Source: Acidobacteriota bacterium (GTDB lineage Bacteria; Acidobacteriota; Aminicenantia; UBA2199). Taken from it: 42,682 bases of DNA. This document shows positions 1 to 42,682 of this stretch, piece after piece. A program made the position numbers and the translations under genes. The notes beneath the pieces were generated by a model. That model did not search any database and had not been told where the DNA came from. It saw nothing but the letters and a program-made list of their open reading frames with translations. The first letter of the stretch is position 1, and each line of letters begins with the position of its first letter. Location: the NCBI GenBank assembly GCA_028749105.1, contig JAQUQF010000001.1:1-42682 (forward strand), in the 5' to 3' direction.

Positions 1-525
1 CGCCCACGCCGCCGCCGCCGCCGCCTCCCGCGCCGCCGCCCACGCCGCCGCCGCCCACGCCGACGCCGCCGCCTCCTCCCATGCCGCCGCCGCCGCCGCC
101 GCCTCCCGCGCCGCCGCCGCCGATCTGTCGGCTCCCGACAGCCACGCTTTCGCCCAAGTGTGCCATTGGGTATCTGATTTTGGTGTCACCTCTTGCGCCG
201 CCAAAATGGCATAACGAACGCGCTGCTCAATCGTGACAACCGGGAGCGCGATTTGCTTGATTGGACGCATCCGAGTCCAACCCTCTTTCATCTGCCCGTC
301 ACGCAGATTCTTGCCCGCAACCTCGACCGCAAATCCAAGCGGGTCACGGATGTTGGCGTGGATGGGGTTATGCAAAACAGCCAGCAGCGGGTGGATGTAG
401 TCATGCAGCCACCCGGGGCCGCACAGTTCGCCGTGGCCGTCTGTTTCCTTCCACTCCCCGACGGTCCACCGGCAGCCGCCGTGGCTGGTCATGTCCTGAC
501 GCAGCAACTTATAACGGATTTTCAT
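1..525 (-). CDS. Partial CDS (C-terminus lies beyond the window edge): globular N-terminal domain followed by Ala/Trp low-complexity repeats; paralog of 42220..42682
   Basis: Hand translation of the minus strand. ATG at 525-523 forms an ATGA overlap with the stop of 522..806. Reads MKIRYKLLRQDMTSHGGCRWTVGEWKETDGHGELCGPGWLHDYIHPLLAVLHNPIHANIRDP...QWHTWAKAWLSGADRSAAAAREAAAAAAAWEEAAASAWAAAAWAAAREAAAAAWA and stays open to nt 1. It is missing from the ORF track only because no stop lies in the window. Confidence 0.7.
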   Translation of the reverse strand, partial: MKIRYKLLRQDMTSHGGCRWTVGEWKETDGHGELCGPGWLHDYIHPLLAVLHNPIHANIRDPLGFAVEVAGKNLRDGQMKEGWTRMRPIKQIALPVVTIEQRVRYAILAAQEVTPKSDTQWHTWAKAWLSGADRSAAAAREAAAAAAAWEEAAASAWAAAAWAAAREAAAAAAWA

Positions 526-18309: not shown

Positions 18310-20772
18310 TCACATGTCCGTCGTTTCCGCGGTGGTCAGCGCCCAGGAGCCCACGCTGTAAATCTTGTATCGGGTGGCCGTGTAATAGGAGCCTGTCTTG
18401 GCCACGGTGGAATTGTTCCGGCAGTCGGAGATATACTCTTCGGCTTTGTCCCGGCTGGTGGTCATCCGGATCATTTTCTCCAGCGTTATGTCCCGCCAAT
18501 ACGTATAATCGTTTTTGTATTGCCGGTGGCGGACGTAATACGGCCCGTAGGTTCCGATTGTCGTCCCGCCGCTGCTGGTGGCGCGGTAGGGGGACTTGTT
18601 GATGTCATAGTCGTAAAGCCCAAACCTGTTGCGGCGTTCCAGGACCGTGTTGTCCGTCGCGGCCGAGAGCGCCGCGGCCGCCAATACCGCCGCGAATTGC
18701 GCCGCGGAACAGTTGCGCCCATGCCAGTAATAGACCGTGCCGTAGCGCGTGAGGTAGCTGCTGTTCCATTGCTGGGTTTTCGGGGTGGTAACTTCTTCGA
18801 CCGTCCGCACCTTGCCGCTTTCGGTGGGCTGGGCCTCAACGCGCTTGGCCGTATTCGCCGCCGGTGTGCCCGAGGGCGTGGTGGCGTTTTCCGTGTGCAG
18901 GACCCGCGTTACCTGCTCGCTGGCGTCTTCCGCCGTGCTGGTGGCCGTCTGGTCTTTGACCGTTACGGTTTCTTCCACGCTCCGTAGTCGCCCGGATTCC
19001 GTCGGCGCCAGGTCCAGGCGCTTGATCTCACCGACCGCCGCGGTGGGCGGGGTCGGCGTGGACGGGTTCTCGGTGTGGAGGACGCGCTCTACCCGCCGGG
19101 CGGCGTTGTCTTCGCCCATGGTCGCGGACTGGTCGTTGACCTGGATGACTTCGTTTTCCGTCCGCACCCTGCCTGCTTCGGTGGGTGTGTTCCGGGCGCG
19201 ATAGATCTTCCCTGCCGGCGGCGATCCCGGCGTTACCGCCACGGCCGCCTGGGTGTGCAGCTCCGTCGTGCCCGTCCGGGCGGCGCTCTTTTCATGACTG
19301 GTCGCGCTCTGGTCCTGGACGGTTACCACTTCCTCCACCGTCCGGGTCCGGCCGGCTTCGGTCGGCTGGTTCTCGTTGCGCTTGATCTTCCCGGCTTCCT
19401 GCACTGGCGCGCCCAAAGGGGCGGCGTTCTCGGTATGCAGGTTCCGCTCCGTCTGGGCCGCGGCGCTGGTTTCCCGGCTGGTGGACGTCTGGTCCTGGAC
19501 GGTTACCACTTCCTCCACCGTCCGCGTCTTGCCGGATTCGGTGGGCTGGTTCTCGTTGCGCTTGATCTTCCCCGCTTCCTGCTCCGGCGTGCCCAGGGCG
19601 GCGGCGTTCTCAGTATGCAGGGCCCGGGTGGTCTTCCTGGCGGCGCTGGTCTCCGCGCTGGTCCGGGTCTGGTCCTTGACGGTTATGGTTTCTTCCACGC
19701 TCCGCATGCGCCCGGCCTCGGTGGGGAGTAGTTCCACCCGCTTGATCTCTCCTGCGGCCGCGGCCGGGTCAGCCACGGCGGCGGCGTTCTCGGTGTGGAG
19801 GACCTTCACGGCGGATTTCGAGGCGCTATCTTCCCGGCTGGTGGACGTCTGGTCCTGGACGGTTACCACTTCCTCCACCGTCCGCGTCTTGCCCGATTCC
19901 GTGGCTTGGTTGTCGTTGCGCTTGATCTTCCCCGCTTCCTGCTCCGGCGCGCCCAGGGGGGCGGCGTTTTCGGTGTGGCTGGCTCTTTCCGTCTTCCTGG
20001 CGGCGCTGGTCTCCGCGCTGGTCCGGGTCTGGTCCTTGACGGTCCGCTTTTGGGTCTGGATGTCCTGTGTGCAATCCTCATTCTTCGTCCGATCCAGATT
20101 CCGGATCTCGCCCGCTGGCACATCTTCAAGATCCAGCAGCGTTACGGCGGCGCCGGTATCGGTCTTGTCGCCTTCATATACCCCGTGGTGTTTGGTGGTC
20201 AGATCGGAGGCGGCGGCGCTTTCCTGGCTGCGGTGTTCGGCGATCACCTGATAAAGCCGGGTCCGCTTCTCGATAAACGTGGTGTAAGTCCCGCGCTCCG
20301 GGTCAACATTGAGCGGGCCCATCCGGTAGGAAATTCCGCTGCTGTTCGCCGGCACGGTGGGTAGTGTGCGCAATCCGAAATACCATGTCACCTCCACGCG
20401 GTATCGGCAGCCTTTCTCGGTAATGACGTCGGCAATGGTCTTGTCTCCGCACCATAACGCCTGCCAGATCCGGAGCGTCCCGCGCAGTTGGGCCTCGTTC
20501 TTGACCTCTTCATACCAGATCCGGCCGCCATACCAGGTGCCCGTCCGGGCCCATTGCGTTCCCGCCATGGGGTTTGTAACGGAAGTTGAGGCGGTGGCGT
20601 TGGCGGCGCTGGTGTAGGTCTGCAGGTAGAGGACCAGGGCGTCAAGGTCTTCCCGGTTGACGCCATCCAGGTAGCGTTCAATCAGGTTGTCCCCAAACCC
20701 GCGGTTCTGCTGGCCCTCGTTGACCTTCCACAGCCGTTCGGCCAGCAGTTCTCTGATGGTGGCGGTTTCCAC
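18310..20772 (-). CDS. 820-aa putative virion protein with 7-8 tandem 60-residue repeats
   Basis: GTG start at 20772. Repeat unit G(K/E)IKRN.NQ.TE(S/A)G(K/R)TRTVEEVVTVQDQT.TS.E.SAA....R.LHTENAA. Confidence 0.8.
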   Translation of the reverse strand: METATIRELLAERLWKVNEGQQNRGFGDNLIERYLDGVNREDLDALVLYLQTYTSAANATASTSVTNPMAGTQWARTGTWYGGRIWYEEVKNEAQLRGTLRIWQALWCGDKTIADVITEKGCRYRVEVTWYFGLRTLPTVPANSSGISYRMGPLNVDPERGTYTTFIEKRTRLYQVIAEHRSQESAAASDLTTKHHGVYEGDKTDTGAAVTLLDLEDVPAGEIRNLDRTKNEDCTQDIQTQKRTVKDQTRTSAETSAARKTERASHTENAAPLGAPEQEAGKIKRNDNQATESGKTRTVEEVVTVQDQTSTSREDSASKSAVKVLHTENAAAVADPAAAAGEIKRVELLPTEAGRMRSVEETITVKDQTRTSAETSAARKTTRALHTENAAALGTPEQEAGKIKRNENQPTESGKTRTVEEVVTVQDQTSTSRETSAAAQTERNLHTENAAPLGAPVQEAGKIKRNENQPTEAGRTRTVEEVVTVQDQSATSHEKSAARTGTTELHTQAAVAVTPGSPPAGKIYRARNTPTEAGRVRTENEVIQVNDQSATMGEDNAARRVERVLHTENPSTPTPPTAAVGEIKRLDLAPTESGRLRSVEETVTVKDQTATSTAEDASEQVTRVLHTENATTPSGTPAANTAKRVEAQPTESGKVRTVEEVTTPKTQQWNSSYLTRYGTVYYWHGRNCSAAQFAAVLAAAALSAATDNTVLERRNRFGLYDYDINKSPYRATSSGGTTIGTYGPYYVRHRQYKNDYTYWRDITLEKMIRMTTSRDKAEEYISDCRNNSTVAKTGSYYTATRYKIYSVGSWALTTAETTDM
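18780..20113 (-). repeat. 180-nt (60-aa) coding tandem repeats, about 7.5 diverged copies
   Basis: Periodicity read from the translation of 18310..20772. Copies are about 50-85% identical at the protein level by eye. Confidence 0.8.
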
Positions 20773-24147: not shown

Positions 24148-27024
24148 TTATTCCGGCGCGCACGGCGCGGCCACGCCAAGCACGGTTACAGGGTAGTTGC
24201 TGCTGCATAACACGCGAATCAGCGTGTTGCTCGCCGACGGCTGGTTGGTCATCCAGGCTGTGCCAACGAACAGCTTGTTGCTGACGGCCCAAGTGTCGCG
24301 CACCTCGATCTCCGCCCGCGTCCAGGTGTCGCCCAGGTCGCGGCTCATCTCGATCTGCACGTCATTGGTCGGCACGTCATTGTTGCCGACGTGTATCAGC
24401 GCCGACGGGTAGGCATACCCCGGCACAAACGGCAGGATAGTGTTGGTGGCGGTGAGGGTCGTGGACATAAGAGGGTCCTCAAGATACCGATAACTTTTCC
24501 CATTTCCATCATAGCCGCCAATCGCGTATAGATAATTGCTATGCCCAACTAGGATGGCACGATGGAGAGTGGTTGCTGTCCCGTCTATTTCCGTCCAAGA
24601 CGTTCCATAATTCGTTGATACATAAAAATTTGTTGCGGCGGTTTTGTAGGCATAAACAGTGTCGCCCACGCCCGCACACCCCATATACTGATTCTGCCCA
24701 AATGGTGTATCCCCCTTGTCTGTATAACTTGCACCATCAAACGAATAGGTCTTATCCGACAAGAAGATCAGAATACGGTCGCCTGAACCACCGGAAACCT
24801 TGGCAGCCCTCTGCGCGCCCCACATCACGGCTGGCAATCCGTCAATTTGTTCCCATACAGCCCCATCAAAACGATATACATTGGTTTGAGGCGACCCATC
24901 CCCAACGCTACCACCAAACGAATACAGATATTGCCCAAGAGCAGCACAGGATGGCATATATCTAGCAGCCGGCAATCCCTCGACTTCTTCCCAGGTAGCT
25001 GCATTCCACCTGAAAACGTTTGTCCGGGCCGGACCCCAGGGCACGCCGCCGCCGACCACATAAAAGCGATTACTATAAACTCCAAATCCATGATAGTTTG
25101 TCGGCGCCCCGTGAATACTCGGCAAACTCACCAGGTTTGTTCCATCGTAAGTATAAAAGTTTGAAGTGCCGTCGCTGTGTAAATAAAACGTGTTAGAAAT
25201 TACTCCGCCTATCCACTCGGAAGCACCAACCTCGGCCAATGTTTCCCAACCTTGCTGCAAAAAGTTTTTGTATCCCGGATCAGCCCACGTCGCATTCGTG
25301 CTCATCCCCGCCATGATGCCGGCCTCGTCGTCAAACCAATACCCCGGCCCGTCAATCAACCCCTGGCTATAACTGGCGGCGGAGTTCCAGGCTTCATACC
25401 GCAGCGCCAGCAGGTTATCCGGTATCCACGGCGCGACCGAAAACGTGTTGCCGATCTTGCGGATTGTCGCGCCATCGCCGACGGGGACCGGCACGGCGAT
25501 CATGAGTTTGTTCGTGCCGATGCTGGCGGTCCCGCCGGTCATCTCGACTTCCAAGACGGCGTTGGTGGCGGTGTTCCACCTGTTTGTCGGCTCTTCCAGA
25601 GCGCTCACCTGGCCCTGCAGCGTGGCCACATCCCCGGTGGCGCCAGTGGCATCCGTGGCCGCTTGATCCCAGACGGACGTGCGGCCTTGGACATCCAGCA
25701 TCTCGCCCTGGAGGGTGGCCACATCCGCGGTGGCGCCAGCCGCGTCAGTGGCGGCCGTGTCCCAGACGGACGTGCGCCCCTGGACATCCAGCATCTCGCC
25801 CTGCAGCGTGGCCACATCCCCGGTGGCGCCAGTGGCATCCGTGGCCGCTTGATCCCAGACGGACGTGCGCCCCTGGACATCCAGCATCTCGCCCTGCAGG
25901 GTGGCCACATCCCCGGTGGCTGACGCCGCATCTGCGGCCGCCTGGTTCCACGTGGAGGTGCCGGCTTCGACGGCCGCCACTCGGCCGGTCGCGTCTATCC
26001 CGTCCGCGCTGGCCTGGTTCCAAAGGCTCGTCCCGGCCTCGACGTCTGCCATTCGCCCCGCCAGATCGTTGGTCCCACCTTCTACGGCTTGGAGTCTGCC
26101 TTCAAACCCGGCGTTGGTGTTCCCCTGTGCGTTGAAGAGCGATTGGAAACCGGCATTCGTGTTCCCCTGGGCGTCGAAGAGCGATTGGAAACCGGCATTC
26201 GTGTTCCCCTGGGCGTTGAATTTACTCTGGAATGTAGAGTTGGTGGATCGTTGCTGCGTAATAAAGTCATCATTGGTCCCAATGCGCAGATCATATTCGT
26301 GATTGATATTCGCCTGGTTATCGTAAAACGCCTGCCAAACCACATTGGAGTTGTTCAGGTTGTTCAGATGCGCCTGGAATCCGGCATTGGTGTTCCCCTG
26401 GGCGGTCCGGAAGGCTTCATTGGACGCTATCCTGACCTCAAACCCCGCGTTGGTGTTCCCCTGGGCGTCATGCAGCGCCTGGAACCCCGCATTCGTGTTC
26501 CCCTGGGCGTCATGGAGCGCCTGGAACCCCGCATTCGTGTTCCCCTGGGCGTCATGGAGCGCCTGGAACCCCGCGTTGGTGTTCCCCTGGGCGTCATGGA
26601 GCGCCTGGAACCCCGCGTTGGTGTTCCCCTGGGCGTCATGCAGCGCCTGGAAGCCAGCATTCGTATTTCCCTGGGCGTCATGCAGCGCCTGGAAGCCAGC
26701 ATTCGTATTTCCCTGGGCGTCATGGAGCGCCTGGAAGCCAGCGTTGGTGTTCCCCTGGAGGGCGGCGTTGTTGGTGATCTGGGCTGTGAGGTTATTGGTC
26801 GCATTCGCCAAATTCGTCTGAATAGCGCCAATAGTCCCGACCAGGTTGGTCATGTAGGATCCGGCATTCGTGCCCCCCGAGCTGCGAATGTATTTGCCAT
26901 CCGCGCCGTCGAACACGACCACTTCGCCGTCCGACACCCGGCCCTTGGTGGCCACATTCGGGTAATACTGCGCCCCAGCACTCGCCGCCAAGCCCAGAAT
27001 AATCATCGCCAAGTGCTTTTTCAT
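24148..27024 (-). CDS. Fibre/receptor-binding-like protein, 958 aa: signal-peptide-like N-terminus, 14-aa and 31-aa repeat arrays, C-terminal Kelch-type beta-propeller
   Basis: ATG at 27024 preceded by GAGGAGGGAA. MKKHLAMIILGLAASAGAQ. VVVFDGADGKYIRSSG is a fibre-like motif. Kelch-like blades: FYVVGGG, LYSFGGS, VYAYKTA, LYAIGGYDG. Confidence 0.85.
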   Translation of the reverse strand: MKKHLAMIILGLAASAGAQYYPNVATKGRVSDGEVVVFDGADGKYIRSSGGTNAGSYMTNLVGTIGAIQTNLANATNNLTAQITNNAALQGNTNAGFQALHDAQGNTNAGFQALHDAQGNTNAGFQALHDAQGNTNAGFQALHDAQGNTNAGFQALHDAQGNTNAGFQALHDAQGNTNAGFQALHDAQGNTNAGFEVRIASNEAFRTAQGNTNAGFQAHLNNLNNSNVVWQAFYDNQANINHEYDLRIGTNDDFITQQRSTNSTFQSKFNAQGNTNAGFQSLFDAQGNTNAGFQSLFNAQGNTNAGFEGRLQAVEGGTNDLAGRMADVEAGTSLWNQASADGIDATGRVAAVEAGTSTWNQAAADAASATGDVATLQGEMLDVQGRTSVWDQAATDATGATGDVATLQGEMLDVQGRTSVWDTAATDAAGATADVATLQGEMLDVQGRTSVWDQAATDATGATGDVATLQGQVSALEEPTNRWNTATNAVLEVEMTGGTASIGTNKLMIAVPVPVGDGATIRKIGNTFSVAPWIPDNLLALRYEAWNSAASYSQGLIDGPGYWFDDEAGIMAGMSTNATWADPGYKNFLQQGWETLAEVGASEWIGGVISNTFYLHSDGTSNFYTYDGTNLVSLPSIHGAPTNYHGFGVYSNRFYVVGGGVPWGPARTNVFRWNAATWEEVEGLPAARYMPSCAALGQYLYSFGGSVGDGSPQTNVYRFDGAVWEQIDGLPAVMWGAQRAAKVSGGSGDRILIFLSDKTYSFDGASYTDKGDTPFGQNQYMGCAGVGDTVYAYKTAATNFYVSTNYGTSWTEIDGTATTLHRAILVGHSNYLYAIGGYDGNGKSYRYLEDPLMSTTLTATNTILPFVPGYAYPSALIHVGNNDVPTNDVQIEMSRDLGDTWTRAEIEVRDTWAVSNKLFVGTAWMTNQPSASNTLIRVLCSSNYPVTVLGVAAPCAPE
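25615..25986 (-). repeat. 93-nt (31-aa) coding repeats ...DVATLQGEMLDVQGRTSVWDQAATDATGATG, about 4 copies
   Basis: Unit starts at 25615, 25708, 25801 and 25894. Confidence 0.9.
26089..26757 (-). repeat. 42-nt (14-aa) coding repeats QGNTNAGFQALHDA; about 7.6 near-perfect copies at 26437-26757 plus degenerate copies down to 26089
   Basis: The unit ctgggcgtcatgSagcgcctggaaSccSgcRttYgtRttYcc repeats head-to-tail. Confidence 0.9.
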
Positions 27025-30988: not shown

Positions 30989-32152
30989 TTATGGGTTGAT
31001 CGAGACAATCCGGAAGTAGAACCGCACTTCCCCGGCGCTGTTCTCGCTCAGCGCGTTTTCGCTGTTCGGGGTGAAGGTGAAGTCCACGGTGTCATCCGCG
31101 GTATAAACCTTCCGGCCGTAGGTGTTGTCCACCAGCGCCGTAACCGCCGTCAGACTTCCCTTGGTAACGGTCGCCGTGGCGGTCGCACCGATCAGATACC
31201 TGTTCTCGGCGCTCGGTGTCAGCGTGGCGGTGGCCGTCGCGTTGGTCGGCAGATCCACGGCTTTTGCCGTCAGCGTGGCGGTGGCCGTCGCGTTGGTCGG
31301 CAGATCCACGGCTTTTGCCGTCAGCGTGGCGGTGGCCGTCGCGTTGGTCGGCAGATCCACGGCTTTTGCCGTCAGCGTGGCGGTAACCAGCACGTTGGTT
31401 ACCCACTCCACCTCTTCCCCGGCGGCATTGGTGATCGCGGCGCCGGTAGAGTCATACCCCTTGGCCGTGTGCAGCGTGATCACGAAGGCCGGATCGTTGG
31501 TGTCGGCCACGTTGATGGTTTCCGTGTTCAGCGTCACCGCCACGGCCGGATCGTTGGTGTCGGCCACGTTGATTGCTTCCGTGTTCAGCGTCACCGCCAC
31601 GGCCGGATCGTTGGTGTCGGCCACGTTGATTGCTTCCGTGTTCAGCGTCACCGCCACGGCCGGATCGTTGGTCGCCGCCAGCATGTCAGCGTCCATGGTG
31701 ATATAGGATACCGTCACCGTCGGATCGTTGGTCTTGGCGTAGTTGATCGTCTCGGTGGTCGTGCCTTGCCAGGCGCGGCCGTATTTCTGCCAGATCTCCG
31801 TCATGTTGGAGTTCAGTTCCGTGGAGTCCAGGTAGAAATCGGCGCCCGCCGCACCGTCGCCCACCGTAACTGCCACCGAGCCGGTGGCATTGTTCCCGGC
31901 GTTGAAGGCGGTCACCAGTTCCATCGCCACCAGTTCGACCCGCTGCTTGGACGTTACCGCCAGGGACGTGAGTGCCTGGGCGGTGTCAGCGTTGGTCTCC
32001 GTCAGGTCGGAATGGTCAATGGTGACCACGTGCGTAGCGCCGGCGTAGGAGCGTTCCTGGATCGTGATCGGCCGCACCGATGCTCCCCAGCCGGGGCCCG
32101 CCAGCCAGCCGACCAGCAGCGTCGCCATTAAAATTGCCGTCAGTTTCTTCAT
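30989..32152 (-). CDS. Signal-peptide repeat protein, 387 aa, located between the capsid and portal genes (decoration/surface protein candidate)
   Basis: MKKLTAILMATLLVGWLAGPGWGAS. Arrays NDPAVAVTLNTEAINVADT x3-4 and ATATLTAKAVDLPTNAT x3. Confidence 0.8.
   Translation of the reverse strand: MKKLTAILMATLLVGWLAGPGWGASVRPITIQERSYAGATHVVTIDHSDLTETNADTAQALTSLAVTSKQRVELVAMELVTAFNAGNNATGSVAVTVGDGAAGADFYLDSTELNSNMTEIWQKYGRAWQGTTTETINYAKTNDPTVTVSYITMDADMLAATNDPAVAVTLNTEAINVADTNDPAVAVTLNTEAINVADTNDPAVAVTLNTETINVADTNDPAFVITLHTAKGYDSTGAAITNAAGEEVEWVTNVLVTATLTAKAVDLPTNATATATLTAKAVDLPTNATATATLTAKAVDLPTNATATATLTPSAENRYLIGATATATVTKGSLTAVTALVDNTYGRKVYTADDTVDFTFTPNSENALSENSAGEVRFYFRIVSINP
31218..31385 (-). 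repeat. 51-nt perfect tandem repeat, 3.3 copies (17-aa units)
   Basis: gtcagcgtggcggtggccgtcgcgttggtcggcagatccacggcttttgcc, with units starting at 31218, 31269 and 31320. Confidence 0.9.
31487..31675 (-). repeat. 57-nt tandem repeat, 3.3 copies (19-aa units)
   Basis: Units start at 31487, 31544 and 31601. They are near-identical. Confidence 0.9.
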
Positions 32153-32276: not shown

Positions 32277-33281
32277 TTAGCTGTTGGTATAGACATACCC
32301 CTGGCCAAGCGGATTGAGGCATTTCAGGATATACACTGCGTCATGGTAACCGCGCGGGCCGCCACCCTGGTCTTCCACCGTCCAGGCGGTCGGGGCTTGC
32401 AGGAAGCAGAGTTCCCACATGTCCATGTCCAGGAAAACCCCGGATCGGCTGCTGTAATCCGTGCTGGCACCGCTGCCCTCGGTGTGCGCCAGATACCAAT
32501 GGGCAAAGGTGTGCACCAGCCCGGCGTCAAACTCGAAGAAGTCCACCACGCGCTGGATCTTCTTCTCGCTGGCGTCGAGGTTGTAGCGCGTGAGCGCCTG
32601 GGCGGTGTTGATGTCCTCCACGTGGCGCTGGGCCCAGCCGCTCATGGCGACTTTGAGCTTGATCCCCACGTAGGCGGCCAGGTCCACCGGGCCTTTCTTG
32701 GCGGCCGCCATGGTTTCCAGCATGGTCTCCATGGCCGCGGCCGTGAATCCGGAGAGCGCGGCCGTGAAATGGCAGGCGGCATTCGGCCGGAAGTTGGCGG
32801 GCACCGGCAGCACTCCCTGCTCGGAATCGCTCAGCCAGGAAAGCACACCGCGGCTGCGGTAGGTGTTGCCGCCCGACTCGGCCCGGGTGTCCAGGGTGGA
32901 AAGGAGCTGCTTCTCCGTCATGCGCGCCAGGCCCAGGGCGTCGTCCGCGGCTTGCTTGGCTTTCTCGCTCTTCACCCCCGCGGCTTTGATGAGCTGCGCC
33001 AGGCGGGTAACCTGCCAGCCGGCGGTCCGCAGCAGCATGGCGTAGCCGCTGACTTTCTCCCGCGTGGTGTGGGTGAAGGCGCTGATGTCCGTGCCGTCCA
33101 GGGTGCCGGTGAAGGCCACGTCCGCATGGAGCTGACACGGCCACTCGCTCAGCATCTCTTTCGGTTTCGGCCCGCGTTTGACCAGACGCGAAAACGGCGT
33201 TTTCTCGCTCTCCGCGATGTAAATGGTGTCGCCAAGTTCCTGCAGTTTCATCGGGACGTCAGTTTCATAGAGTCCGGGCAT
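32277..33281 (-). CDS. Major capsid protein, HK97 fold (SU10/P22-coat-like family), 334 aa
   Basis: N-terminal LGDTIYIAESEKTPFSRLVKRGPKPKEMLSEWPCQ pattern typical of this capsid family. Follows a scaffold-like gene. AGGAGGG Shine-Dalgarno. Confidence 0.8.
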   Translation of the reverse strand: MPGLYETDVPMKLQELGDTIYIAESEKTPFSRLVKRGPKPKEMLSEWPCQLHADVAFTGTLDGTDISAFTHTTREKVSGYAMLLRTAGWQVTRLAQLIKAAGVKSEKAKQAADDALGLARMTEKQLLSTLDTRAESGGNTYRSRGVLSWLSDSEQGVLPVPANFRPNAACHFTAALSGFTAAAMETMLETMAAAKKGPVDLAAYVGIKLKVAMSGWAQRHVEDINTAQALTRYNLDASEKKIQRVVDFFEFDAGLVHTFAHWYLAHTEGSGASTDYSSRSGVFLDMDMWELCFLQAPTAWTVEDQGGGPRGYHDAVYILKCLNPLGQGYVYTNS

Positions 33282-35176: not shown

Positions 35177-37237
35177 TCACCTTTCCCGCACCGTCTTTCC
35201 TGTTGGTAGCCTTTTGTGCGATCCAAAGGGCACCGGCCGCTTCGGGGCCACGCCATAACTGAATCCACCCCGGCCGTGCGTGGCCTCTCGCCCATCATCT
35301 TCGCATTCGCTCATGAAGAAGTAGCGCAGCAGGTCAATCGGATCTTTGCAGGCGCCTTTCTCGCCATCGGCGCCGGTCCAGTTCTCCAGGGCGTAAATCA
35401 TGTTGGGGCAGGCGGCGCTGATGTAGAGGCTCGGAGCATTGCTGAGGTTGCCGGCGTCGTCGGTCTCGTAGTCGAGCGCGGTGTTGATCGCGCTCTCACC
35501 TTCGCAAATTTCTTTGCCGGGCGCCAGGTCAAAGGTGAGCAGCAGATCGTCAAAGATCGTCTGGAGCGTGATCGGCCGGTCGTTCTCGATCCGGGGCGCG
35601 CTGGCGGCGCGGCTGTCCATGATCCGACCGGAGATCAACTCCCGGGCGCCGCAGCGTTCATCCCATTCTTCCAGTTCTTCGTCCGGGGGATATTCCCGGC
35701 CAGGGTTTTCCGACCGCCATTCTTCGTAGTTGCGCCAGCCTTCCAGCCTGGCGATCTCAAATTTGTAACGGCGATGCCCCCAGCCCCAGGGGCCTTGGCC
35801 TTCACTACGGGCCCCGTCGTTCCGGCCTTCATTGCGCCCGCTCGGGATCGCCCAGGGGCCCGGAATCCCGACCCCGGGTATCAGGTAGTCCCCGGGCCAT
35901 TCGCGATACACCACGTATGTCCGGCGTTCGCCTGGTTGGCTCACCCGGATCCAGCATTGGTAGTAGTTCCGACCGGAGGCCGGATCCATAAAGTGATAAT
36001 TGGTCCCCGCGATCGCGGCGGCTTGTTTGGGGGTCAAGACATGCCGGCGGCGGTCAAAGCGCGGGAATTTGCCCGCCACCGTCTTTTCGGCTACGCCGTA
36101 AAACCTCTCTCGGATATACGGGCGCGGTCTCTTCCGGACGCTGGCGATCAGCTCTTTGGGGTTGCCGAATGGGTTGTCCGCACCGTGAAACCAGATCACG
36201 CCTTTGAGGGGATCCACACAGCGGGCGACTCTGGGCACCCATTCCAGGGTGGCTTGATTTTCTTCCGCGGCTCCCGCCAGCCAGGTCCAAATGTCCGGCG
36301 GCCGGGCGGCGGGTGATAATACCAGCTTTTTGCCGGCGGTCTGCAGGGTCCAGTATTCTTCTTCCGTCAGTCCCAGGGCGCCAGATTCGTCAGGGTTTTG
36401 GCCCAATACCGGGAGTAAATGCCCGGGAGTTCTCCAGGTTGTCTGGGCGCTGTCCAGGAAGAGCTTGACGGTCGGGGTCCAGCCGTGAACGGGCGTGAAG
36501 GTTACTATTCCCTTGCCGGCGCGCGTTACCAGCCGGATCATCAGCTCGTCCAGCCAGTCGGCAGGCACCAACTCGTCCGGGGCCACCAGGTCGGGCTCTA
36601 AGCCCTGGATGGCGGTGTCCCGATCCTGCATGTAATTCATGAAATAACACGCGCTGCCGTTGGGCGTAATGAAACTCGATTCGGAAAATCCGGTCTTGCG
36701 TTTGTATTTGATGTAGGCCACCGCCGTCATGACCTGCAGCTTCCATTCGGCGGGTAAATACTTCCAGAATAAGGGTTGCTGGTCCATGACGCTGCGGGGA
36801 TTGCTCTCATGGAACGCATAGATCTTCGATCCGCTCTTATGAACGAGTGTGCCCAGGGAGCGCTTGGCCGAGTATTCGCTCTTGCCCGTGCGGTTGCCGC
36901 CCAGGATCAACAGCATGCGCACCGGCTCCGTGAATCCCAGCCGCCGGCGCACCTGGGCCTTGAAGTCTTCCCAGGTGGTCCCGCGCGCCTGGAGTTGTTT
37001 CTCAAAATGCTTGTCCAGTAGCCATTCGTAATCCAGCAGCGCGTCCGCGATCTTCCAGATCGGGCTTTCCCAGCCATAGCGCAGAGGATCGTCTTCCGCC
37101 GCGGCGATGGCTTCCGCGCGCATGTCCAGCAGGCGCTTGGCGGCGGCGTCCAGCGTCAGGCCGTGGCGGGCGGCCTCGGCTTCCACCTGGGCTCGGCTGG
37201 GCGGGGGCAGAATGGGATGATTTTTTATTCCTGGCAT
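35177..37237 (-). CDS. terL: Terminase large subunit, 686 aa
   Basis: Walker A LILGGNRTGKSEYS. Walker-B-like DLVAPDE. Size and C-terminal nuclease-length region are consistent. Confidence 0.85.
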   Translation of the reverse strand: MPGIKNHPILPPPSRAQVEAEAARHGLTLDAAAKRLLDMRAEAIAAAEDDPLRYGWESPIWKIADALLDYEWLLDKHFEKQLQARGTTWEDFKAQVRRRLGFTEPVRMLLILGGNRTGKSEYSAKRSLGTLVHKSGSKIYAFHESNPRSVMDQQPLFWKYLPAEWKLQVMTAVAYIKYKRKTGFSESSFITPNGSACYFMNYMQDRDTAIQGLEPDLVAPDELVPADWLDELMIRLVTRAGKGIVTFTPVHGWTPTVKLFLDSAQTTWRTPGHLLPVLGQNPDESGALGLTEEEYWTLQTAGKKLVLSPAARPPDIWTWLAGAAEENQATLEWVPRVARCVDPLKGVIWFHGADNPFGNPKELIASVRKRPRPYIRERFYGVAEKTVAGKFPRFDRRRHVLTPKQAAAIAGTNYHFMDPASGRNYYQCWIRVSQPGERRTYVVYREWPGDYLIPGVGIPGPWAIPSGRNEGRNDGARSEGQGPWGWGHRRYKFEIARLEGWRNYEEWRSENPGREYPPDEELEEWDERCGARELISGRIMDSRAASAPRIENDRPITLQTIFDDLLLTFDLAPGKEICEGESAINTALDYETDDAGNLSNAPSLYISAACPNMIYALENWTGADGEKGACKDPIDLLRYFFMSECEDDGREATHGRGGFSYGVAPKRPVPFGSHKRLPTGKTVRER

Positions 37238-37542
37238 ATTCCCAATCCTCGTAAAATCGCGGCGCGCTCGATCTTGGTGTCAAGGATCTCCAGGAGCTCG
37301 GCTAACCCGGGGCCTTGGAGCCAATATAACAACACCAGCACTTCGCCCGGTGTCCGGCATCCGCCCACTACCACCCGCGGCGGCCAGCCTTCCTGCCAAC
37401 GCGGATCGAGCTTGCCATTCTTCGCAATGCCGGCGTTGCGCAGGCTCTTGTAGTCCTCCACCGCCTGCTCGATGATGGCATACCCCAGGGCATCATACCC
37501 CTCAGTCCAGAGAACAGGAAAATACAGGTCAGTCTTTCGCAT
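37225..37542 (-). CDS. Hypothetical 105-aa protein upstream of terL (small-terminase position, unverified)
   Basis: ATG at 37542. GYAIIEQAVEDYKSL. Overlaps the terL start by 13 nt. Confidence 0.55.
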   Translation of the reverse strand: MRKTDLYFPVLWTEGYDALGYAIIEQAVEDYKSLRNAGIAKNGKLDPRWQEGWPPRVVVGGCRTPGEVLVLLYWLQGPGLAELLEILDTKIERAAILRGLGICQE

Positions 37543-37912
37543 TCCGTTTCCTTTCCCAGATCTCCATCCAGCGCATGACGTAATCCACCACGCTGCGGGC
37601 GAAGGGGATTTCCTGGTCTTCGGTGATGCCTTTGGGCTCAAATTCCTGGTAGCCAAATTTTTTTACCAGGCTCTCCAGGCTCTCCCCGCGCTGGAGCGCA
37701 ATGGAGATGGCTATGCTCCAGGAGTCCGCAAAGCCGTCCAGAGTGCTGCCGCTTTCGTCCATGTGCAGGAAGAGTTCCGCCGGCCGGCCGTCCGGATAAA
37801 ATCCCACCGTGAAAAAGAATTTCACCCGGCCAAAGGGCGCCGCCGCGCGGATCACCGCCTTGTGCGTGATGCTCGGCCTGGTGTCCGGTAACCGCTCGCG
37901 CGTGTCGTTCAT
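37529..37912 (-). CDS. Stand-alone TSCPD-like domain protein (ribonucleotide-reductase C-terminal-domain-like), 127 aa
   Basis: RPSITHKAV...FFFTVGFYPDGRPAELFLHMDESGSTLDGFADSWSIAISIALQRGESLESLVKKF...ARSVVDYV matches the family pattern. The TSCPD Cys position reads ARSVVD. Confidence 0.65.
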   Translation of the reverse strand: MNDTRERLPDTRPSITHKAVIRAAAPFGRVKFFFTVGFYPDGRPAELFLHMDESGSTLDGFADSWSIAISIALQRGESLESLVKKFGYQEFEPKGITEDQEIPFARSVVDYVMRWMEIWERKRNAKD

Positions 37913-38121
37913 GCTTTGCCTTGCCTCCTTTCCCGCTTGAGTTCCCTCTCAATCTCCCGGGCGCGCTCCAGGTCCTCCGCCACCCCGACGATCGCTTCTG
38001 TAACTTTCTCCCCCGCCTTTCTTTGCCGAAGCGCCCAGGCGACCGCATCCCCCAGCCGGCGCACAAAGAGCCCGCCGGCTTCATGCCATTCCACCGCCCA
38101 CCATTGTTTCCATTCATTCAT
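37909..38121 (-). CDS. Hypothetical 70-aa protein
   Basis: ATG at 38121. ATGA overlap downstream and an 8-nt overlap with the dnaB stop. Confidence 0.55.
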   Translation of the reverse strand: MNEWKQWWAVEWHEAGGLFVRRLGDAVAWALRQRKAGEKVTEAIVGVAEDLERAREIERELKRERRQGKA

Positions 38122-39463
38122 CCAGGCCGAATCCTTCTTCCCCGCACTCCTCGAACATGAAGTAGTGGGCGTGAAGCCAGCATTGGATTACCCCGGTCTC
38201 GCCGTTCTGTTGCTTCTGAATGTCCACGTTGACCGGCCTCTTTTTTTTCTGTTCTTCGTAGCCCATCTTCTTGACCGCTTTCTCATCCCGATAAACGAAT
38301 ATGACTACCGTCGCGTCCTGTTCCAGGCTGCCGCTGCCGCGCAGGTCCGCCAGCCGGGGGGGCCGGTCGTCCCGCTCGTTGTCGCGGGTGAGCTGGGACA
38401 CGCAGAGGATCGGAATCTCCAGCTCCAGCGCCAGGCGCTTGAGCACCCCGCTGACGTGCGTGATCTTCTGGCATTCCTGCCAGTAGGCGGCGGCGGGATG
38501 TGAAATCTGCACGTTCTGGATGAAGTCCAAGGTCATGAGCTGCATGTTGTGTTTGGCTTTCATCCCCCGCGCCCAGGATGTGATGGCGCCTACGTCGAAA
38601 ATGTCCCCTTTGACCGCGATGGGATACCCCTTAACCATGGGTATAATCTCGTCATGCAGCTTGGCTAGTTGGCTTTCACCCGCAAAACCGGAATTGAGTT
38701 TGGGGAGGCTGATCCCCGCTTCCCGACATAGCATCCGGGCCCATACCATCTGCACGGGCATGTCTATGGCCACCCGGCCTACCCACCCGCCGGCTTTGGC
38801 GACATGCGCGGCTATGTTTTCTTCCAGGACGCTTTTTCCCTGGCTGGGCCGGCCGGCGACCAGGTATAATCCCGGCCGTAAGCCGCCGCCCAAAAGCTGG
38901 TTGAGTTTGCTGAAGGGTGTTTCCAGCCCGGAGGGTTTTTCTCCGGCTTTGACCGCGCGCCAGCCGGCATAAAGGGTTTGCATGACCTCTTCGGGCGACT
39001 TTTCTTTTTCGGCCAGTTCCCCCAGGATCCCCGTAAAACTTTCCGCACTCTCCAGCGCTATTTTTTCCGGCTCTTCGCCAGTTCCCACCTGAACGTTCAC
39101 CTTCCCGGCTAATTCGATCAGACGCCGCCGCATCCACTCCGACCTGACCAGGCCCAGGTAATAGGGCCCATGCGCGGCGGCGGGCACCGCGTCCACCAGC
39201 GCGTTGAGGTAGTCCAGGCCGCCGGCGGTCTTGAGTTTGCCGGCGCGTTCCAGATTTTCGGAGAGGGTGAGGATGTCCACCGGGCGGCCGGCGGCGAAAA
39301 GCTCTAGCATGGCGGCGAAAATAACCTGGTTGCGGTGTTCGTAAAACATGGCCGCCGTGATTTTTCCGTCGCTGATGGCATACGGAATTATCTGGGCGGG
39401 CTCCAGGAGCGCCGCGCCCAGGGCGGCGCGCTCGGCTTCTTTTTGGGTTTCAGTCCGTTCCAT
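38114..39463 (-). CDS. dnaB: Replicative DNA helicase DnaB family, 449 aa
   Basis: ERAALGAALLEP N-terminal domain. Walker A VAGRPSQGKS. DLRGSGSLEQDATVVIFVYRDE. ATG at 39463 preceded by GGGGAGGGCAAAAAAG (the track start at 39481 is GTG). Confidence 0.93.
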   Translation of the reverse strand: MERTETQKEAERAALGAALLEPAQIIPYAISDGKITAAMFYEHRNQVIFAAMLELFAAGRPVDILTLSENLERAGKLKTAGGLDYLNALVDAVPAAAHGPYYLGLVRSEWMRRRLIELAGKVNVQVGTGEEPEKIALESAESFTGILGELAEKEKSPEEVMQTLYAGWRAVKAGEKPSGLETPFSKLNQLLGGGLRPGLYLVAGRPSQGKSVLEENIAAHVAKAGGWVGRVAIDMPVQMVWARMLCREAGISLPKLNSGFAGESQLAKLHDEIIPMVKGYPIAVKGDIFDVGAITSWARGMKAKHNMQLMTLDFIQNVQISHPAAAYWQECQKITHVSGVLKRLALELEIPILCVSQLTRDNERDDRPPRLADLRGSGSLEQDATVVIFVYRDEKAVKKMGYEEQKKKRPVNVDIQKQQNGETGVIQCWLHAHYFMFEECGEEGFGLDE

Positions 39464-40322
39464 CTTTTTTGCCCTCCCCACCCTTGAAAAGACGCTTCTC
39501 CAGCTCTTCCCAGGCGCCGCCGTTTTTTTGCTGCTCTACCAGCCGACGCACGATTTTTTCATATTGCACCCGAAGCCAACTGCCAGGTTGGGCGATAGGC
39601 CCCGCCAAAATCGCCTTGTCAGCGACCTCGGCGGCGACTTTCTCCCAATTCACTTCCACCGGCGCGGCGGCAAAGAAGCGGCGCGCCAGGTAGTCCTGTT
39701 CCCAGGTCAGGTTGTGAAGTTCGATCCTGCCCTTGAGAATCCGGTGCGCCGCATCTCCTTCCATGCCTTCTACCCCCTCGCTCTCCGTGGGAGTGGGTAT
39801 GGGAGTGGGAATGGGAGTGGGAATGGGAATGGGAGACATGTTTTTCCCTGCATTTCCCTGCATTTCCCTGCCATTCCCTTCAATTCCTTGCAATTCCTTG
39901 CAATTCCTTGCAATTCCTTGCAATTGCTTTCCTTTCCGTGGAGTTGCCTTTTTTTCCTTGATAATGCTGGCTTTTACGCGGGGCGGGCGGCCGTCGGCGT
40001 AGGTCAGGTGGTGGGCGGCCAGGTATCTGTCGGCCGAGTTGTCGGAGTGATCCGACCAGTCGTGTATGATCAGCCGGTGGGTCTGGTCTTTTCGGATCCA
40101 TCCCGCGGCGACCAGCCCCTCGATGAGCAGCTCCGGATCGAGTTTCCAGCCGATCATGCCGGCCAGGGCGTCGTTGGTGTATTTCCCGATGTCCCCGGCT
40201 GGGCAATACCGGGCCGCGAACAGCCACAGGGTTTCCATGATCCCGACCGCGGCATACTTCTCCAGCCCCAGGATGCTCATGAGCATCAGCATCTTGGGAT
40301 GTTCCGGCGTTCCCCTCTTCAT
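39450..40322 (-). CDS. Replication initiator/replisome-organiser-like protein, 290 aa, with a repeat-encoded central linker
   Basis: N-terminal HPKMLMLMSILGLEKYAAVGIMETLWLFAARYCPAGDIG...LVAAGWI...LIIHDWSDH resembles phage replication-protein N-terminal domains. Sits immediately upstream of dnaB. Confidence 0.65.
   Translation of the reverse strand: MKRGTPEHPKMLMLMSILGLEKYAAVGIMETLWLFAARYCPAGDIGKYTNDALAGMIGWKLDPELLIEGLVAAGWIRKDQTHRLIIHDWSDHSDNSADRYLAAHHLTYADGRPPRVKASIIKEKKATPRKGKQLQGIARNCKELQGIEGNGREMQGNAGKNMSPIPIPTPIPTPIPTPTESEGVEGMEGDAAHRILKGRIELHNLTWEQDYLARRFFAAAPVEVNWEKVAAEVADKAILAGPIAQPGSWLRVQYEKIVRRLVEQQKNGGAWEELEKRLFKGGEGKKDGTD
39788..39836. repeat. 12-nt repeats GGGAGTGGGAAT x3 plus hexamer GGGAAT, encoding PIPTPIPTPIPTP
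   Basis: Directly adjacent to the 10-bp repeat block. Confidence 0.85.
39841..39940. repeat. Ten consecutive 10-bp units (phased A/T tracts); ori/iteron candidate inside the initiator gene
   Basis: TTTTTCCCTG CATTTCCCTG CATTTCCCTG CCATTCCCTT CAATTCCTTG x4 CAATTGCTTT CCTTTCCGTG. The period is not a multiple of 3. Confidence 0.6.
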
Positions 40323-40681
40323 TCCCCACCCCCTTGTTTCACCCCGTATTTTTCCCCGTCCCAGACGTATCTCTCGTGCAATTCCGGCTCAATACAAGCG
40401 TCCACGCTCGCGCACTCGCCGCGCCAGAACCGATAAACATATCCCCGTAGGTAATAGAGCGTCATGTGCTCTCCGGCAGGGATCTTTTCCGGCCCGCCTG
40501 TCCGGCTCTGATAACCGTGGCTTGTGTGTTCGGACTTACGCAGGATGATGTAATCCCGGCGCTGGTGCAGCCAGGGTGCCAAGCGGATTGCCCGCACGGA
40601 TGTTGGGTGCCCAACTATGCGGTCGCCTACCCGAATGATCCTGTCCGCTGTGCGCTCAGCGAGTGTCATAGCAGGGATCAT
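40319..40681 (-). CDS. Hypothetical protein, 120 aa
   Basis: ATG at 40681 immediately after the stop of 40682..41131. ATGA overlap with the initiator gene. Confidence 0.6.
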   Translation of the reverse strand: MIPAMTLAERTADRIIRVGDRIVGHPTSVRAIRLAPWLHQRRDYIILRKSEHTSHGYQSRTGGPEKIPAGEHMTLYYLRGYVYRFWRGECASVDACIEPELHERYVWDGEKYGVKQGGGE

Positions 40682-41131
40682 CTACCACCTCCCCCGACCC
40701 CGCGGCAGGCGGCCGACAAAGTCCCACATGTTTCCCCCAGGCGGCTGCTGCAGTTGGGCGCGTTCAATCTGCATTCCGGGCAGGAAGTTCTGGTTGTTCC
40801 GAACCCGGATGATGATCTCCTCTCCGTTGAGCGTGGCCTCCATGAAACGGCCGTTTTTCAGGAAGACCCGTTTGACGACCGCCGGGAGATCGGGCGCCGC
40901 CTCGGGCGGGACCTGGGTAATACTCCCCAGGATTGACTTGGCCTCCTGGGCATTGCTCATGGCCAGGATGTTGATGATCTTCTCAATCCCCTTCTGGCTG
41001 TAGCGGATCTGCCGCCGGGCCATGCCGTATTCCTCGGCGCCGAACCCGTTTTCAGTCCGGATCCGCCGGATGGTCTCCCGGGGCACCCCCAGCCGTTGGG
41101 CAACTTCATCCTCGTTGTGATCGTATTTCAT
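40682..41131 (-). CDS. HTH DNA-binding protein, 149 aa
   Basis: DEVAQRLGVPRETIRRIR. C-terminal beta-rich domain ending RLPRGRGRW. Confidence 0.65.
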   Translation of the reverse strand: MKYDHNEDEVAQRLGVPRETIRRIRTENGFGAEEYGMARRQIRYSQKGIEKIINILAMSNAQEAKSILGSITQVPPEAAPDLPAVVKRVFLKNGRFMEATLNGEEIIIRVRNNQNFLPGMQIERAQLQQPPGGNMWDFVGRLPRGRGRW

Positions 41132-41265
41132 CTCCGCCCCTTTCCTGGTTTCCAGCCGTGTTTCACCGCCTGGGCGAACCGCTCAAAGCGGTCCCGGGCC
41201 CCGCGGCTCTTGAACGTCCGCACCTCCCCGCTCGCCATCCGCAGCTTCCTTTTTCCGATTTTCAT
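41128..41265 (-). CDS. Possible small basic protein, 45 aa (MKIGKRKLRMASGEVRTFKSRGARDRFERFAQAVKHGWKPGKGRR)
   Basis: ATGA overlap with the 41131 start. AGGA 4 nt before the ATG. Overlaps 41183..41422 by 83 nt, so at most one of the two overlapping reading frames is used across 41183-41265. Confidence 0.4.
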   Translation of the reverse strand: MKIGKRKLRMASGEVRTFKSRGARDRFERFAQAVKHGWKPGKGRR

Positions 41266-41422
41266 TCCTGGTCCTTTCGCATAGCGGGCACAGCAACCGC
41301 TCCCCGGGTTTGTGCCTGATTCCGTGTTCCTGGCGCAAGATCGCAATGGCCTGTTGTTGCGCCTGCTCATGCCGCCAGATCGCGGCCCTGACCCCAACCA
41401 TGCCCCCCCGTCCCCAGCTCAT
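41183..41422 (-). CDS. Possible small protein, 79 aa, with a CPLC knuckle
   Basis: ATG at 41422 preceded by AAAGGGGGAGAAAA. The C-terminal third looks like out-of-frame sequence. Confidence 0.45.
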   Translation of the reverse strand: MSWGRGGMVGVRAAIWRHEQAQQQAIAILRQEHGIRHKPGERLLCPLCERTRNENRKKEAADGERGGADVQEPRGPGPL

Positions 41423-41474
41423 TTTTCTCCCCCTTTCTTAAACAGTTGGAGTTGATCCATTTTCCTCCTTTGCC

Positions 41475-41630
41475 CTAGTTGTTATTGCATTCCCCCACCT
41501 CCGCCACCCGCCGCGCCCTGCGCTTGGCGTTCTTGGCCCTGCGGCGCTCCCGGCGGGCCATGGCTCTCTTAGCAGCCTCCTCCGCCGACACCGGCTGGAG
41601 TCTTGCCCGTCGCAGTTCTTTGAGTGTCAT
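41475..41630 (-). CDS. Possible small basic protein, 51 aa (MTLKELRRARLQPVSAEEAAKRAMARRERRRAKNAKRRARRVAEVGECNNN)
   Basis: Hand translation. ATG at 41630 preceded by GGGGGAGACGCC. Below the ORF-track length cut-off. Overlaps the tail of 41569..42102 by 62 nt. Confidence 0.4.
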   Translation of the reverse strand: MTLKELRRARLQPVSAEEAAKRAMARRERRRAKNAKRRARRVAEVGECNNN

Positions 41631-42102
41631 GGCGTCTCCCCCTTCCCCGGCGGCGGGGCTTCCTCACCTCCTCAATCCGCTTGCCGCAGTAGTGGCAGAA
41701 CGCGTAATGGGCTTGCACCGGACCAACGTGGCAGAAGGTGATCTTGCCGCACCCGGTATCCCACGCGTCGGTATCCCACGAGTCGGGCGGGTGCCGCGTC
41801 CACTTGCAGGTCGCGGGCGGCGGGTCGGGGACCGGCTCTCCCGTTTCCACCTTCGGCAGCGGGCCGCCCCACTGGCCGCCACACTCCTCGATTGGGCGAT
41901 TGCAATATCCCAACGTTGCCCATAATTTTCCGTCATTAAAACAGTCAACGTGAACGGGCATCCAAGTATGCCTTTTACTTTCTCGCCAGTAGTTCCACCC
42001 CGGCTCGGTGGGCGGCGGCTGGGGCGTGGGGAAGACGGTCAGGCACCCCGTGTCGTCATACCCGTGGCGAATGCCCTGGTTGTCACGGAATTGGATTTTC
42101 AT
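41569..42102 (-). CDS. Cys/Trp/Pro-rich protein, 177 aa, with a C-terminal zinc-ribbon-like CxxC pair
   Basis: GCGKITFCH...FCHYCGKRI. ATG at 42102 in an ATGA overlap with the truncated ORF upstream. Confidence 0.65.
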   Translation of the reverse strand: MKIQFRDNQGIRHGYDDTGCLTVFPTPQPPPTEPGWNYWRESKRHTWMPVHVDCFNDGKLWATLGYCNRPIEECGGQWGGPLPKVETGEPVPDPPPATCKWTRHPPDSWDTDAWDTGCGKITFCHVGPVQAHYAFCHYCGKRIEEVRKPRRRGRGRRHDTQRTATGKTPAGVGGGGC

Positions 42103-42219
42103 ACGAACCGTCCTTTCTCCGCTGACCAGCGGACGCGGATGGTGTGTTGCCTTAAATCCGATAAAAACATATCTTCCATAACGGAACCGTTTAATGGATT
42201 GCTGGCGTAATCTTTCAAT

Positions 42220-42682
<463 letters not shown>

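Follow-up and report, generated by a model that had tools for sequence, protein, structure and literature searches.

Several well-studied phages carry their replication origin inside the gene of the initiator that acts on it. Origins proven at the same relative place as the repeats described below are those of lambda (PMC7466680), SPP1 (oriL in gene 38, PMC6316719), and TP901-1 and Tuc2009 (PMC8965321). In lambda, the annotated iterons cover amino acids 117-145 of the O protein, and the number of repeats alters the length of the O linker (PMC7466680). In SPP1, the origin-binding protein G38P binds direct repeats within gene 38, downstream of which a DnaB-family helicase is encoded (PMC6316719). 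These repeats (AACAATGAW) are contiguous, with a 9-bp spacing, and lie at nucleotides 418-449 of the gene, around amino acids 140-150. The replisome organizers of TP901-1 (ORF13/Rep) and Tuc2009 (Rep2009) bind direct repeats of their own genes, which constitute the origin (PMC8965321); in TP901-1 these cover amino acids 118-136 of Rep. Iteron plasmids offer a further comparison, as the winged-helix initiators RepA of pPS10, TrfA of RK2, and RepE of F bind direct iterons beside the opening site (PMC4980987, PMC4081077). Here, we analyse a block of short repeats (39781-39960) in the replication-initiator gene of a 42,682-nt stretch of DNA, hereafter the window, which is contig JAQUQF010000001.1 of an Acidobacteriota assembly (GCA_028749105.1). 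The window is phage-like: it encodes a large terminase (35177-37237) as well as a major head protein (32277-33281), with almost every gene on one strand. We conclude that the block is probably the theta-type replication origin of this phage, placed where its own initiator gene encodes a linker, a reading that is supported on comparative and structural-prediction grounds.

The initiator gene (39450-40322, minus strand) encodes 290 amino acids and was recognised from its open reading frame (ORF) and its matches to PHROG families. It has three parts, all read on the minus strand. The first codes for an N-terminal domain (N-domain; amino acids 1-118, 39969-40322), predicted to be winged-helix-like and presumed to bind the iterons. 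The second codes for a disordered inter-domain linker (amino acids 119-189, 39756-39968) that holds two arrays of repeats, and the third for a helical C-terminal domain (amino acids 190-290, 39453-39755), presumed to recruit the helicase. The repeats encode amino acids 121-179, a linker of low predicted local distance difference test (pLDDT) scores between two folded domains, and therefore the repeats are the linker.

Array A, the candidate iterons, consists of ten head-to-tail 10-bp units without gaps at 39841-39940 (direct reading of the plus strand), and it encodes amino acids 128-161. In the register that starts at 39841, units 1 to 4 are gtttttccct, gcatttccct, gcatttccct, and gccattccct, and units 5 to 10 are tcaattcctt, three copies of gcaattcctt, gcaattgctt, and tcctttccgt. 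The original prediction, made from the sequence, had described ten exactly phased 10-bp units here, and we confirmed them by reading, with Tandem Repeats Finder (TRF), and by lag-10 self-identity. TRF reports the array at 39844-39925 with a period of 10, 8.2 copies, 91% matches, and 0% indels, and a repeat search returned nine copies with a start-to-start spacing of exactly 10. The lag-10 self-identity at 39841 is 75/90 over 90 nt, against a window-wide background of 23.9 +/- 5.3, a best value elsewhere of 59, and a maximum of 49 in 200 block shuffles. The unit registers that had been proposed also hold, with (T/C)(T/A)TTTCCCTG three times at 39843-39872 and CAATTCCTTG four times at 39882-39921; the remaining units of the array are one intermediate and two degenerate. 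On the coding strand, the units take the form AAGGAATTGC / AGGGAAATGC. Array A is the only array of its kind in the 42.7-kb window, where no second decamer cluster was found. Two further degenerate decamers directly follow it, with a T-run, up to 39960, and the T-rich stretch that was expected after the decamers was found at 39949-39956.

Array B (39788-39836) is made of 6/12-bp repeats that encode (Pro-Ile/Thr)n at amino acids 163-179. Its plus-strand unit is TGGGAGTGGGAA, the 12-mer being a pair of hexamers, and its coding strand reads CCCATT/CCCACT. TRF places it at 39788-39834 (period 12, 3.9 copies, 94% matches), and it yields 12 matches against 4.25 expected. It had been described as three copies of GGGAGTGGGAAT: the 12-bp repeats are indeed present, but the copy count was wrong, as there are two exact and two variant copies. 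The translation said to read through the repeats (…KQLQGIARNCKELQGIEGNGREMQGNAGKNMSPIPIPTPIPTPIPTPTESEG…) and its reading frame were correct.

Repeats in this part of the gene are the rule among relatives. A search of 5.8 billion proteins returned 68 relatives of the initiator, and in their alignment the N-domain is conserved and the linker is low-complexity, unalignable, and often visibly repetitive. We then surveyed with TRF (score >= 40, at least 2.5 copies) 80 viral-contig loci encoding the N-domain, 79 of which have usable linkers. The original prediction had named relatives devoid of any linker array as an observation that would speak against it; tandem repeats were found in 66 of the 79 linkers. 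They cover 22.6% of the linkers, compared with 0.56% of the remaining 436 kb of the 80 loci, and the coverage profile is flat save for a sharp peak at nucleotides 300-600 of the initiator gene. The same layout is found in the isolated phages Microcystis Mwe-Yong1318-1, Synechococcus Sc-Yong805-2, Paenibacillus Harrison, and Faecalibacterium Lagaffe. Among five loci from genome collections, three have linker arrays (metagenome-assembled genomes (MAGs) of Bryobacteraceae, Planctomycetaceae, and Verrucomicrobiota), and TRF reported nothing in the two loci from Terriglobia.

The periods of these arrays are informative. After dereplication to 59 loci, the long arrays of the linkers have periods of 10 (16 arrays), 11 (20), 12 (9), 13 (3), 14 (2), 16 (1), and 21 (1), and none has a period of 8, 9, 15, or 18. 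A period of 10 or 11 is found in 36/52 long linker arrays and in 4/24 arrays outside the linker (p = 2e-5). Outside the linker, most arrays have a period divisible by 3 (Fisher p = 2e-5 and 2e-4 in the period comparisons). The claim that the 10-bp period does not come from coding is thus substantiated by the period-10/11 arrays of relatives at the same place. A repeat whose unit is not a multiple of 3 is costly in an essential gene, because slippage by a single unit shifts the frame. The persistence of 10/11-bp repeats despite this risk speaks for selection at the DNA level. In addition to the long-period array, relatives often carry a second, short-period array, with a period of 6 in 39 cases, 5 in five, and 7 in three. 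The long-period array is 5' of the short-period one in 31/31 loci having both (p ~1e-9), and the window shows the same order, decamers then hexamers on the coding strand.

The units of the long-period arrays vary between phages (AAGTCCGGAA, GCCGGGGCAA, ACGACAAGTC, ACAGAAACTCA, GACACCACGGC, CCAGTACCCTACT, and TGCAACCCCGG), and differences of this kind are expected if recognition is phage-specific. An AAGTC core is common to 12 loci whose N-domains are only ~46% identical. In locus L067, an AT-rich spacer separates two iteron arrays, and in L007 a hexamer array does so; both arrangements are classic origin layouts. The periods cluster around the helical repeat, the place and order of the arrays in the gene do not vary, and the units are phage-specific, all of which points to a phage-specific protein that would bind one face of the helix. 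Across the loci surveyed, the adjacent N-domain is the only constant candidate for this array-binding protein. Since selection seems to act on the DNA and proven phage origins are built in the same way, we read the block as a probable in-gene origin with decamer iterons.

The protein itself is consistent with a role in initiation. It matches phrog_9474 ('replication initiation protein') with E = 5.3e-20 over amino acids 3-99 (profile positions 8-104 of 288), a match limited to the N-domain, the C-terminal part having none. Members of this family include gp65 of Paenibacillus phage Harrison and gp47 of Faecalibacterium phage Lagaffe. Weaker matches are to phrog_3926 (2.6e-5), phrog_2509, and phrog_13246 ('replisome organizer', 3e-4). 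We found no Pfam, NCBIfam, or PDB sequence match for the initiator, and none in Pfam even at E <= 10. When 69 family members were scanned against Pfam and NCBIfam, none matched a family concerned with replication or DNA binding, and PDB sequence and fold searches revealed no solved structure for the N-domain family. An AlphaFold2 model was built on the 69-sequence alignment. The N-domain is predicted with high confidence (pLDDT above 95 for amino acids 1-115; pLDDT 96 and predicted TM-score 0.87 for the domain), with four helices, a beta-hairpin, and two further helices. In the full-length model, 10-residue blocks over amino acids 121-190 have a mean pLDDT of 50-64, and the C-terminal domain is confident and helical over amino acids 190-270 (pLDDT 92-97 for 191-260). 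The arrays thus coincide with a predicted disordered linker, as the original prediction had placed them. Structural matches of the N-domain in BFVD are to proteins of uncultured phages (3e-10), to a 'Primosomal protein 1' (6e-5), and to a 'Replisome organizer' (8e-4); a protein labelled 'GpO N-terminal' matches with E = 0.2. Together with phrog_9474 and phrog_13246, these bear out the resemblance to phage replication-organiser proteins that had been proposed. The N-domain has invariant or near-invariant residues in an N-terminal MKRGTPEHPK arm, in GDIG (amino acids 43-46), and in H87-D-W-x-x-H92, a set that is unusually rich in His and Asp for a plain DNA-binding domain.

The gene of a DnaB-type replicative helicase (38114-39481, minus strand) lies next to that of the initiator, and its start overlaps the 3' end of the latter. 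It was identified by matches to Pfam DnaB_C (2.2e-51), to the DnaB N-terminal domain (2.5e-21), and to phrog_19 (1e-59), so that the initiator gene is directly upstream of dnaB, as had been stated. We propose a course of events that starts with the production of the initiator and the helicase from these overlapping genes. The winged-helix-like N-domain would then bind the ten contiguous decamers and build a wrapped nucleoprotein complex, like the O-some of lambda. Because there is one unit per helical turn, the bound proteins would lie on one face of intrinsically curved DNA, and a wrapped complex would follow from this. The resulting strain would open nearby DNA, most likely in the low-GC decamers and the T-rich flank (39877-39976). 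This span has 40% GC, against 61% for the window, and is its sixth-lowest 100-nt span; the degenerate decamers and the T-rich, low-GC flank at 39941-39976 are the candidate easily melted region. The helical C-terminal domain would finally recruit the phage helicase directly, and the hexamer array would be part of the same module as the decamers. The locus resembles an initiator-plus-helicase module, since no loader gene was seen.

The physical properties of the block and a number of negative results have to be weighed against this proposal. The curvature that had been predicted is recovered by calculation, few stretches of the window being more curved than the block. In a first-order wedge model, array A reaches 74.5 degrees at 39838, the highest value of the window over a 31-bp span, and the block is second over a 105-bp span (127.6 degrees at 39879), figures that depend on the Bolshoy-Trifonov parameters used. 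This dependence limits the weight of the curvature, and the following points count against the origin reading. Across the family, we found no AT-rich unwinding element that keeps its position, the location of the least stable 30-mer being inconsistent, and the arrays are on average not AT-rich. There is a mild average dip in GC at nucleotides 240-450 of the gene across the family. The cumulative GC skew drops monotonically across the window and has no extremum near 39.9 kb; it is uninformative, given that almost every gene lies on the minus strand. No DnaA boxes were found within several kb of the block, their total being at chance level, and no sigma-70-like promoters in 39300-41300. A TRF-detectable array is absent from 13 of the 79 relatives. 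The hexamer array may be explicable at the level of the protein, mainly as a stiff (Pro-X)n linker, as around 32 of 38 period-6 arrays read as (Pro-X)n. Against such a linker, X ranges from acidic to basic to hydrophobic, six arrays are in other frames, several switch frame midway, one and the same CCCATA/CCCATT DNA is translated differently in the window and in L002, and eight arrays have a period of 5 or 7. We found no experimental study of any family member in the literature. The N-domain is presumed to be winged-helix-like from Foldseek matches that are not significant: nothing in the PDB passed, with best E-values of ~0.24-0.5 and query-normalised TM-scores of ~0.3-0.4. The weak matches include MarR, RovA, FadR, RuvB, RecQ, and the N-terminus of DnrK, which we take to carry winged-helix modules. 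Finally, homology to lambda O has an hhalign probability of 0.1% with the 69-sequence profile, and SPP1 G38P and TP901-1 Rep (DnaD-like; phrog_428, phrog_186) gave 0.1-0.2%, in a test that is weak as it used single-sequence templates. The lambda O protein (Pfam family Phage_rep_O) matches phrog_277, phrog_2365, phrog_391, and others, none of which is common to the initiator of the window. Because homology to lambda O, SPP1 G38P, or TP901-1 Rep is not detectable, the case rests on analogy. Terminator-like sites are at chance level, and Rfam identified no RNA family in 38000-42682.

Some of these results would suit decamers that are initiator-binding sites serving control (autoregulation, titration or handcuffing, copy control), with replication starting elsewhere. 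Such dual roles are established for plasmid iterons (PMC4980987), one of the two SPP1 origins lies outside gene 38 (PMC6316719), and the arrays lack a conserved AT-rich element. There is also an extra copy of TGCAATTCC, which precedes the start of the gene by 55 nt. Yet the window contains no second decamer cluster, arrays flank an AT-rich spacer in some relatives (L067), and repeats so placed are the origin in every phage studied experimentally (PMC7466680, PMC6316719, PMC8965321). We consider this explanation unlikely. The additional TGCAATTCC is a single exact iteron core at 40377-40385, within the 3' end of the preceding gene, and might either serve in autoregulation or have arisen by chance; we estimate the chance expectation for a match of this type at ~0.3 per whole window.

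The repeats might instead be neutral products of replication slippage, tolerated by a disordered linker and devoid of function at the DNA level. The region is indeed predicted to be disordered, the hexamer arrays are microsatellite-like, and the peptides that result show free variation. CCCATA/CCCATT DNA, for instance, gives PIPT in the window and in L001, and HSHT in L002. The frame switches within arrays in L013, L015, L021, L029, and L077. However, neutral slippage in coding sequence favours multiples of 3, whereas 36/52 long arrays have a period of 10 or 11 and none of 9 or 15. Slippage by a single unit would also cause a frameshift that removes the C-terminal domain of an essential protein. 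Nor would it lead one to expect the invariant order of long then short arrays in 31/31 loci (p ~1e-9), or the AAGTC core kept in 12 loci with N-domains as distant as ~46% identity. This makes neutral slippage quite improbable.

The family is large and its C-terminal half is remarkably variable. With clustering at 50% identity, N-domain homologues number 6787 cluster representatives at E <= 1e-3, and a stricter cut-off of E <= 1e-10 leaves 3717. The phages and prophages that encode relatives come from MAGs of Acidobacteriota, Planctomycetota, and Verrucomicrobiota, with further relatives in phage isolates that infect Cyanobacteria and Firmicutes. Among 77 complete ORFs, at least 35 sequence families of C-termini are fused to the conserved N-domain, and the C-terminal junction at the repeat arrays amounts to extreme domain shuffling at the linker. 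A DnaB homologue is encoded downstream in only 21 of the 80 loci. The C-terminal type of the window was found in 7/80 (tblastn), all seven with a DnaB-type gene downstream. As far as these loci tell, the arrays travel with the N-domain and not with the helicase.

This variability bears on a third explanation, in which the repeats, chiefly the hexamers, are a recombination joint for swapping C-terminal modules that recruit a helicase or loader onto the N-domain. The junction coincides with the arrays, and the diversity of C-terminal families is what such a joint would produce. (GCCAGA)n, repeated at least three times, is found in eight loci with 7 different C-terminal families at the junction, and would fit the role of a joint. 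The helical 10/11-bp periodicity and the phage-specific units of array A are left unexplained, and as a full account of the block we find it very improbable; it could hold alongside the origin explanation, as neither rules out the other. Lastly, a packaging (pac) site with phased repeats bound by the small terminase is extremely unlikely because the arrays follow the initiator N-domain whatever its neighbouring genes, and pac sites are normally in or beside the small-terminase gene, even if they can be phased short repeats on bent DNA, as established for SPP1 and P1, and the large terminase gene (35177-37237) is 2.5 kb away.

Returning to the origin reading, its least settled component is the hexamer array, for which several roles come into question: that of a spacer or (Pro-X)n linker, that of an auxiliary element for binding or unwinding, and that of a recombination joint. 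We also entertain, as a rather unlikely possibility, a two-part in-gene origin shared by the whole family, with contiguous 10-11-bp iterons followed, always on the 3' side, by a CCA-rich microsatellite of 5-7 bp and without a conserved AT-rich element. The microsatellite would serve for unwinding, for binding of single-stranded DNA, or for helicase loading, and also as a joint for the exchange of C-terminal modules. Such an origin would depart from the textbook design of iterons plus an AT-rich DNA unwinding element (DUE).

Other properties of the arrays were noted along the way. On the plus strand, array B has ~8-9 GGG runs at 39789-39835, one every 6 nt with 3 other bases after each. This is a canonical motif of the G-quadruplex type on the template strand, common to the nearest relatives, L001 and L002. 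We set aside the G-quadruplex as a general explanation, since it fits the window, L001, and L002, and most relatives have units of the CCAGAG/GCCAGA type. The units of array B (GGGAATGGGAG, 39807-39835) are the inverted complement of a decamer variant (CTGCCATTCCC, 39868-39878), and the two arrays form an imperfect inverted repeat around an ACATGT palindrome (39837-39842). Single-strand folding of 39781-39960 gave z = -2.26, with GGGAAT of array B partly pairing with the TTCCC cores of array A. This relation was dropped because relatives do not have it. Searches of public collections for the exact decamer array returned nothing in viral contigs and three metagenome matches that we judged to be coincidental simple repeats. 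These contigs carry a tandem array of GCAATTCCTT in 3-5 copies (L094 2575-2602, L095 3214-3241, and L096 8406-8433). The flanks are unrelated, do not look like phage DNA, and are in part intergenic, and no homologue of the initiator was found nearby.

The rest of the window has features of its own. Between the helicase and terminase genes, an ORF of 127 amino acids (37529-37912, minus strand) has a TSCPD domain (2e-8). A quarter of the window is occupied by an ORF of 3559 amino acids (4805-15484, minus strand), with a helicase-like stretch at amino acids 1753-1974 (phrog_62, 2.6e-27) and matches to large proteins without assigned function (phrog_5143). Long in-frame tandem repeats were found at 15230-15460, 19308-20043, 25612-25920, 26441-26758, 31218-31384, and 31465-31672. 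Their units are of 42-180 nt, some 100% identical, and lie in large minus-strand ORFs without family match, which are probably tail or fibre-like structural proteins. Arrays of CGC/CCG triplets are present at both ends of the window (7-122 and 42312-42469), and the ORF at 42220-42678 (minus strand) is Ala-rich and of low complexity. A comparison of the window ends showed no exact overlap that would indicate a circular molecule.

For uncultivated phages, the origin of replication is hardly ever annotated. An array in the linker provides a simple sequence rule for the probable origin, and for the recognition sequence of the initiator, in thousands of genomes. This could be used for annotation, for shuttle vectors or replicons in poorly tractable soil phyla, and for studies of the co-evolution of initiators and iterons. 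What most merits further work is the two-array architecture seen across the family.

How close is this locus to the described systems? The parallel with the lambda origin that had been drawn holds in position, amino acids 121-179 here compared with 117-145 in O, as an analogy, homology being undetected. Lambda, and also the Stx phages 933W and P27, have the origin midway along the initiator gene, where the linker is encoded, as here. Lambda likewise has several repeats that bind the initiator (binding is presumed in our case), sequence-directed curvature, and a helicase-delivery gene directly downstream. It differs in having four 18-bp iterons spaced by ~20-24 bp and then a defined AT-rich region, whereas the window has ten contiguous 10-bp units and then hexamers that are not AT-rich. 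Lambda also relies on its P protein to capture the DnaB of the host, whereas the phage of the window has its own DnaB-type helicase and no loader was seen. In P22, initiator gene 18 is directly followed by gene 12, which encodes a DnaB-type helicase, and the origin is within the initiator gene. The P22 initiator is O-like, and its iteron architecture is unlike that of the window. SPP1 differs from the window in its separate loader (G39P, for the G40P helicase), its AT-rich unwinding element, and its second origin (oriR). TP901-1 and Tuc2009 differ in the period of 15 bp, the AT-richness, and the DnaD-like C-terminus. Plasmid iterons are of ~17-22 bp, outside the rep gene, and accompanied by a defined AT-rich DUE with 13-mers and by DnaA boxes, whereas the units described here each span one helical turn, adjoin one another without gaps, and lie within the gene. 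The concept of an origin within the initiator gene is textbook, and the window is a clear further example of it rather than a surprise.

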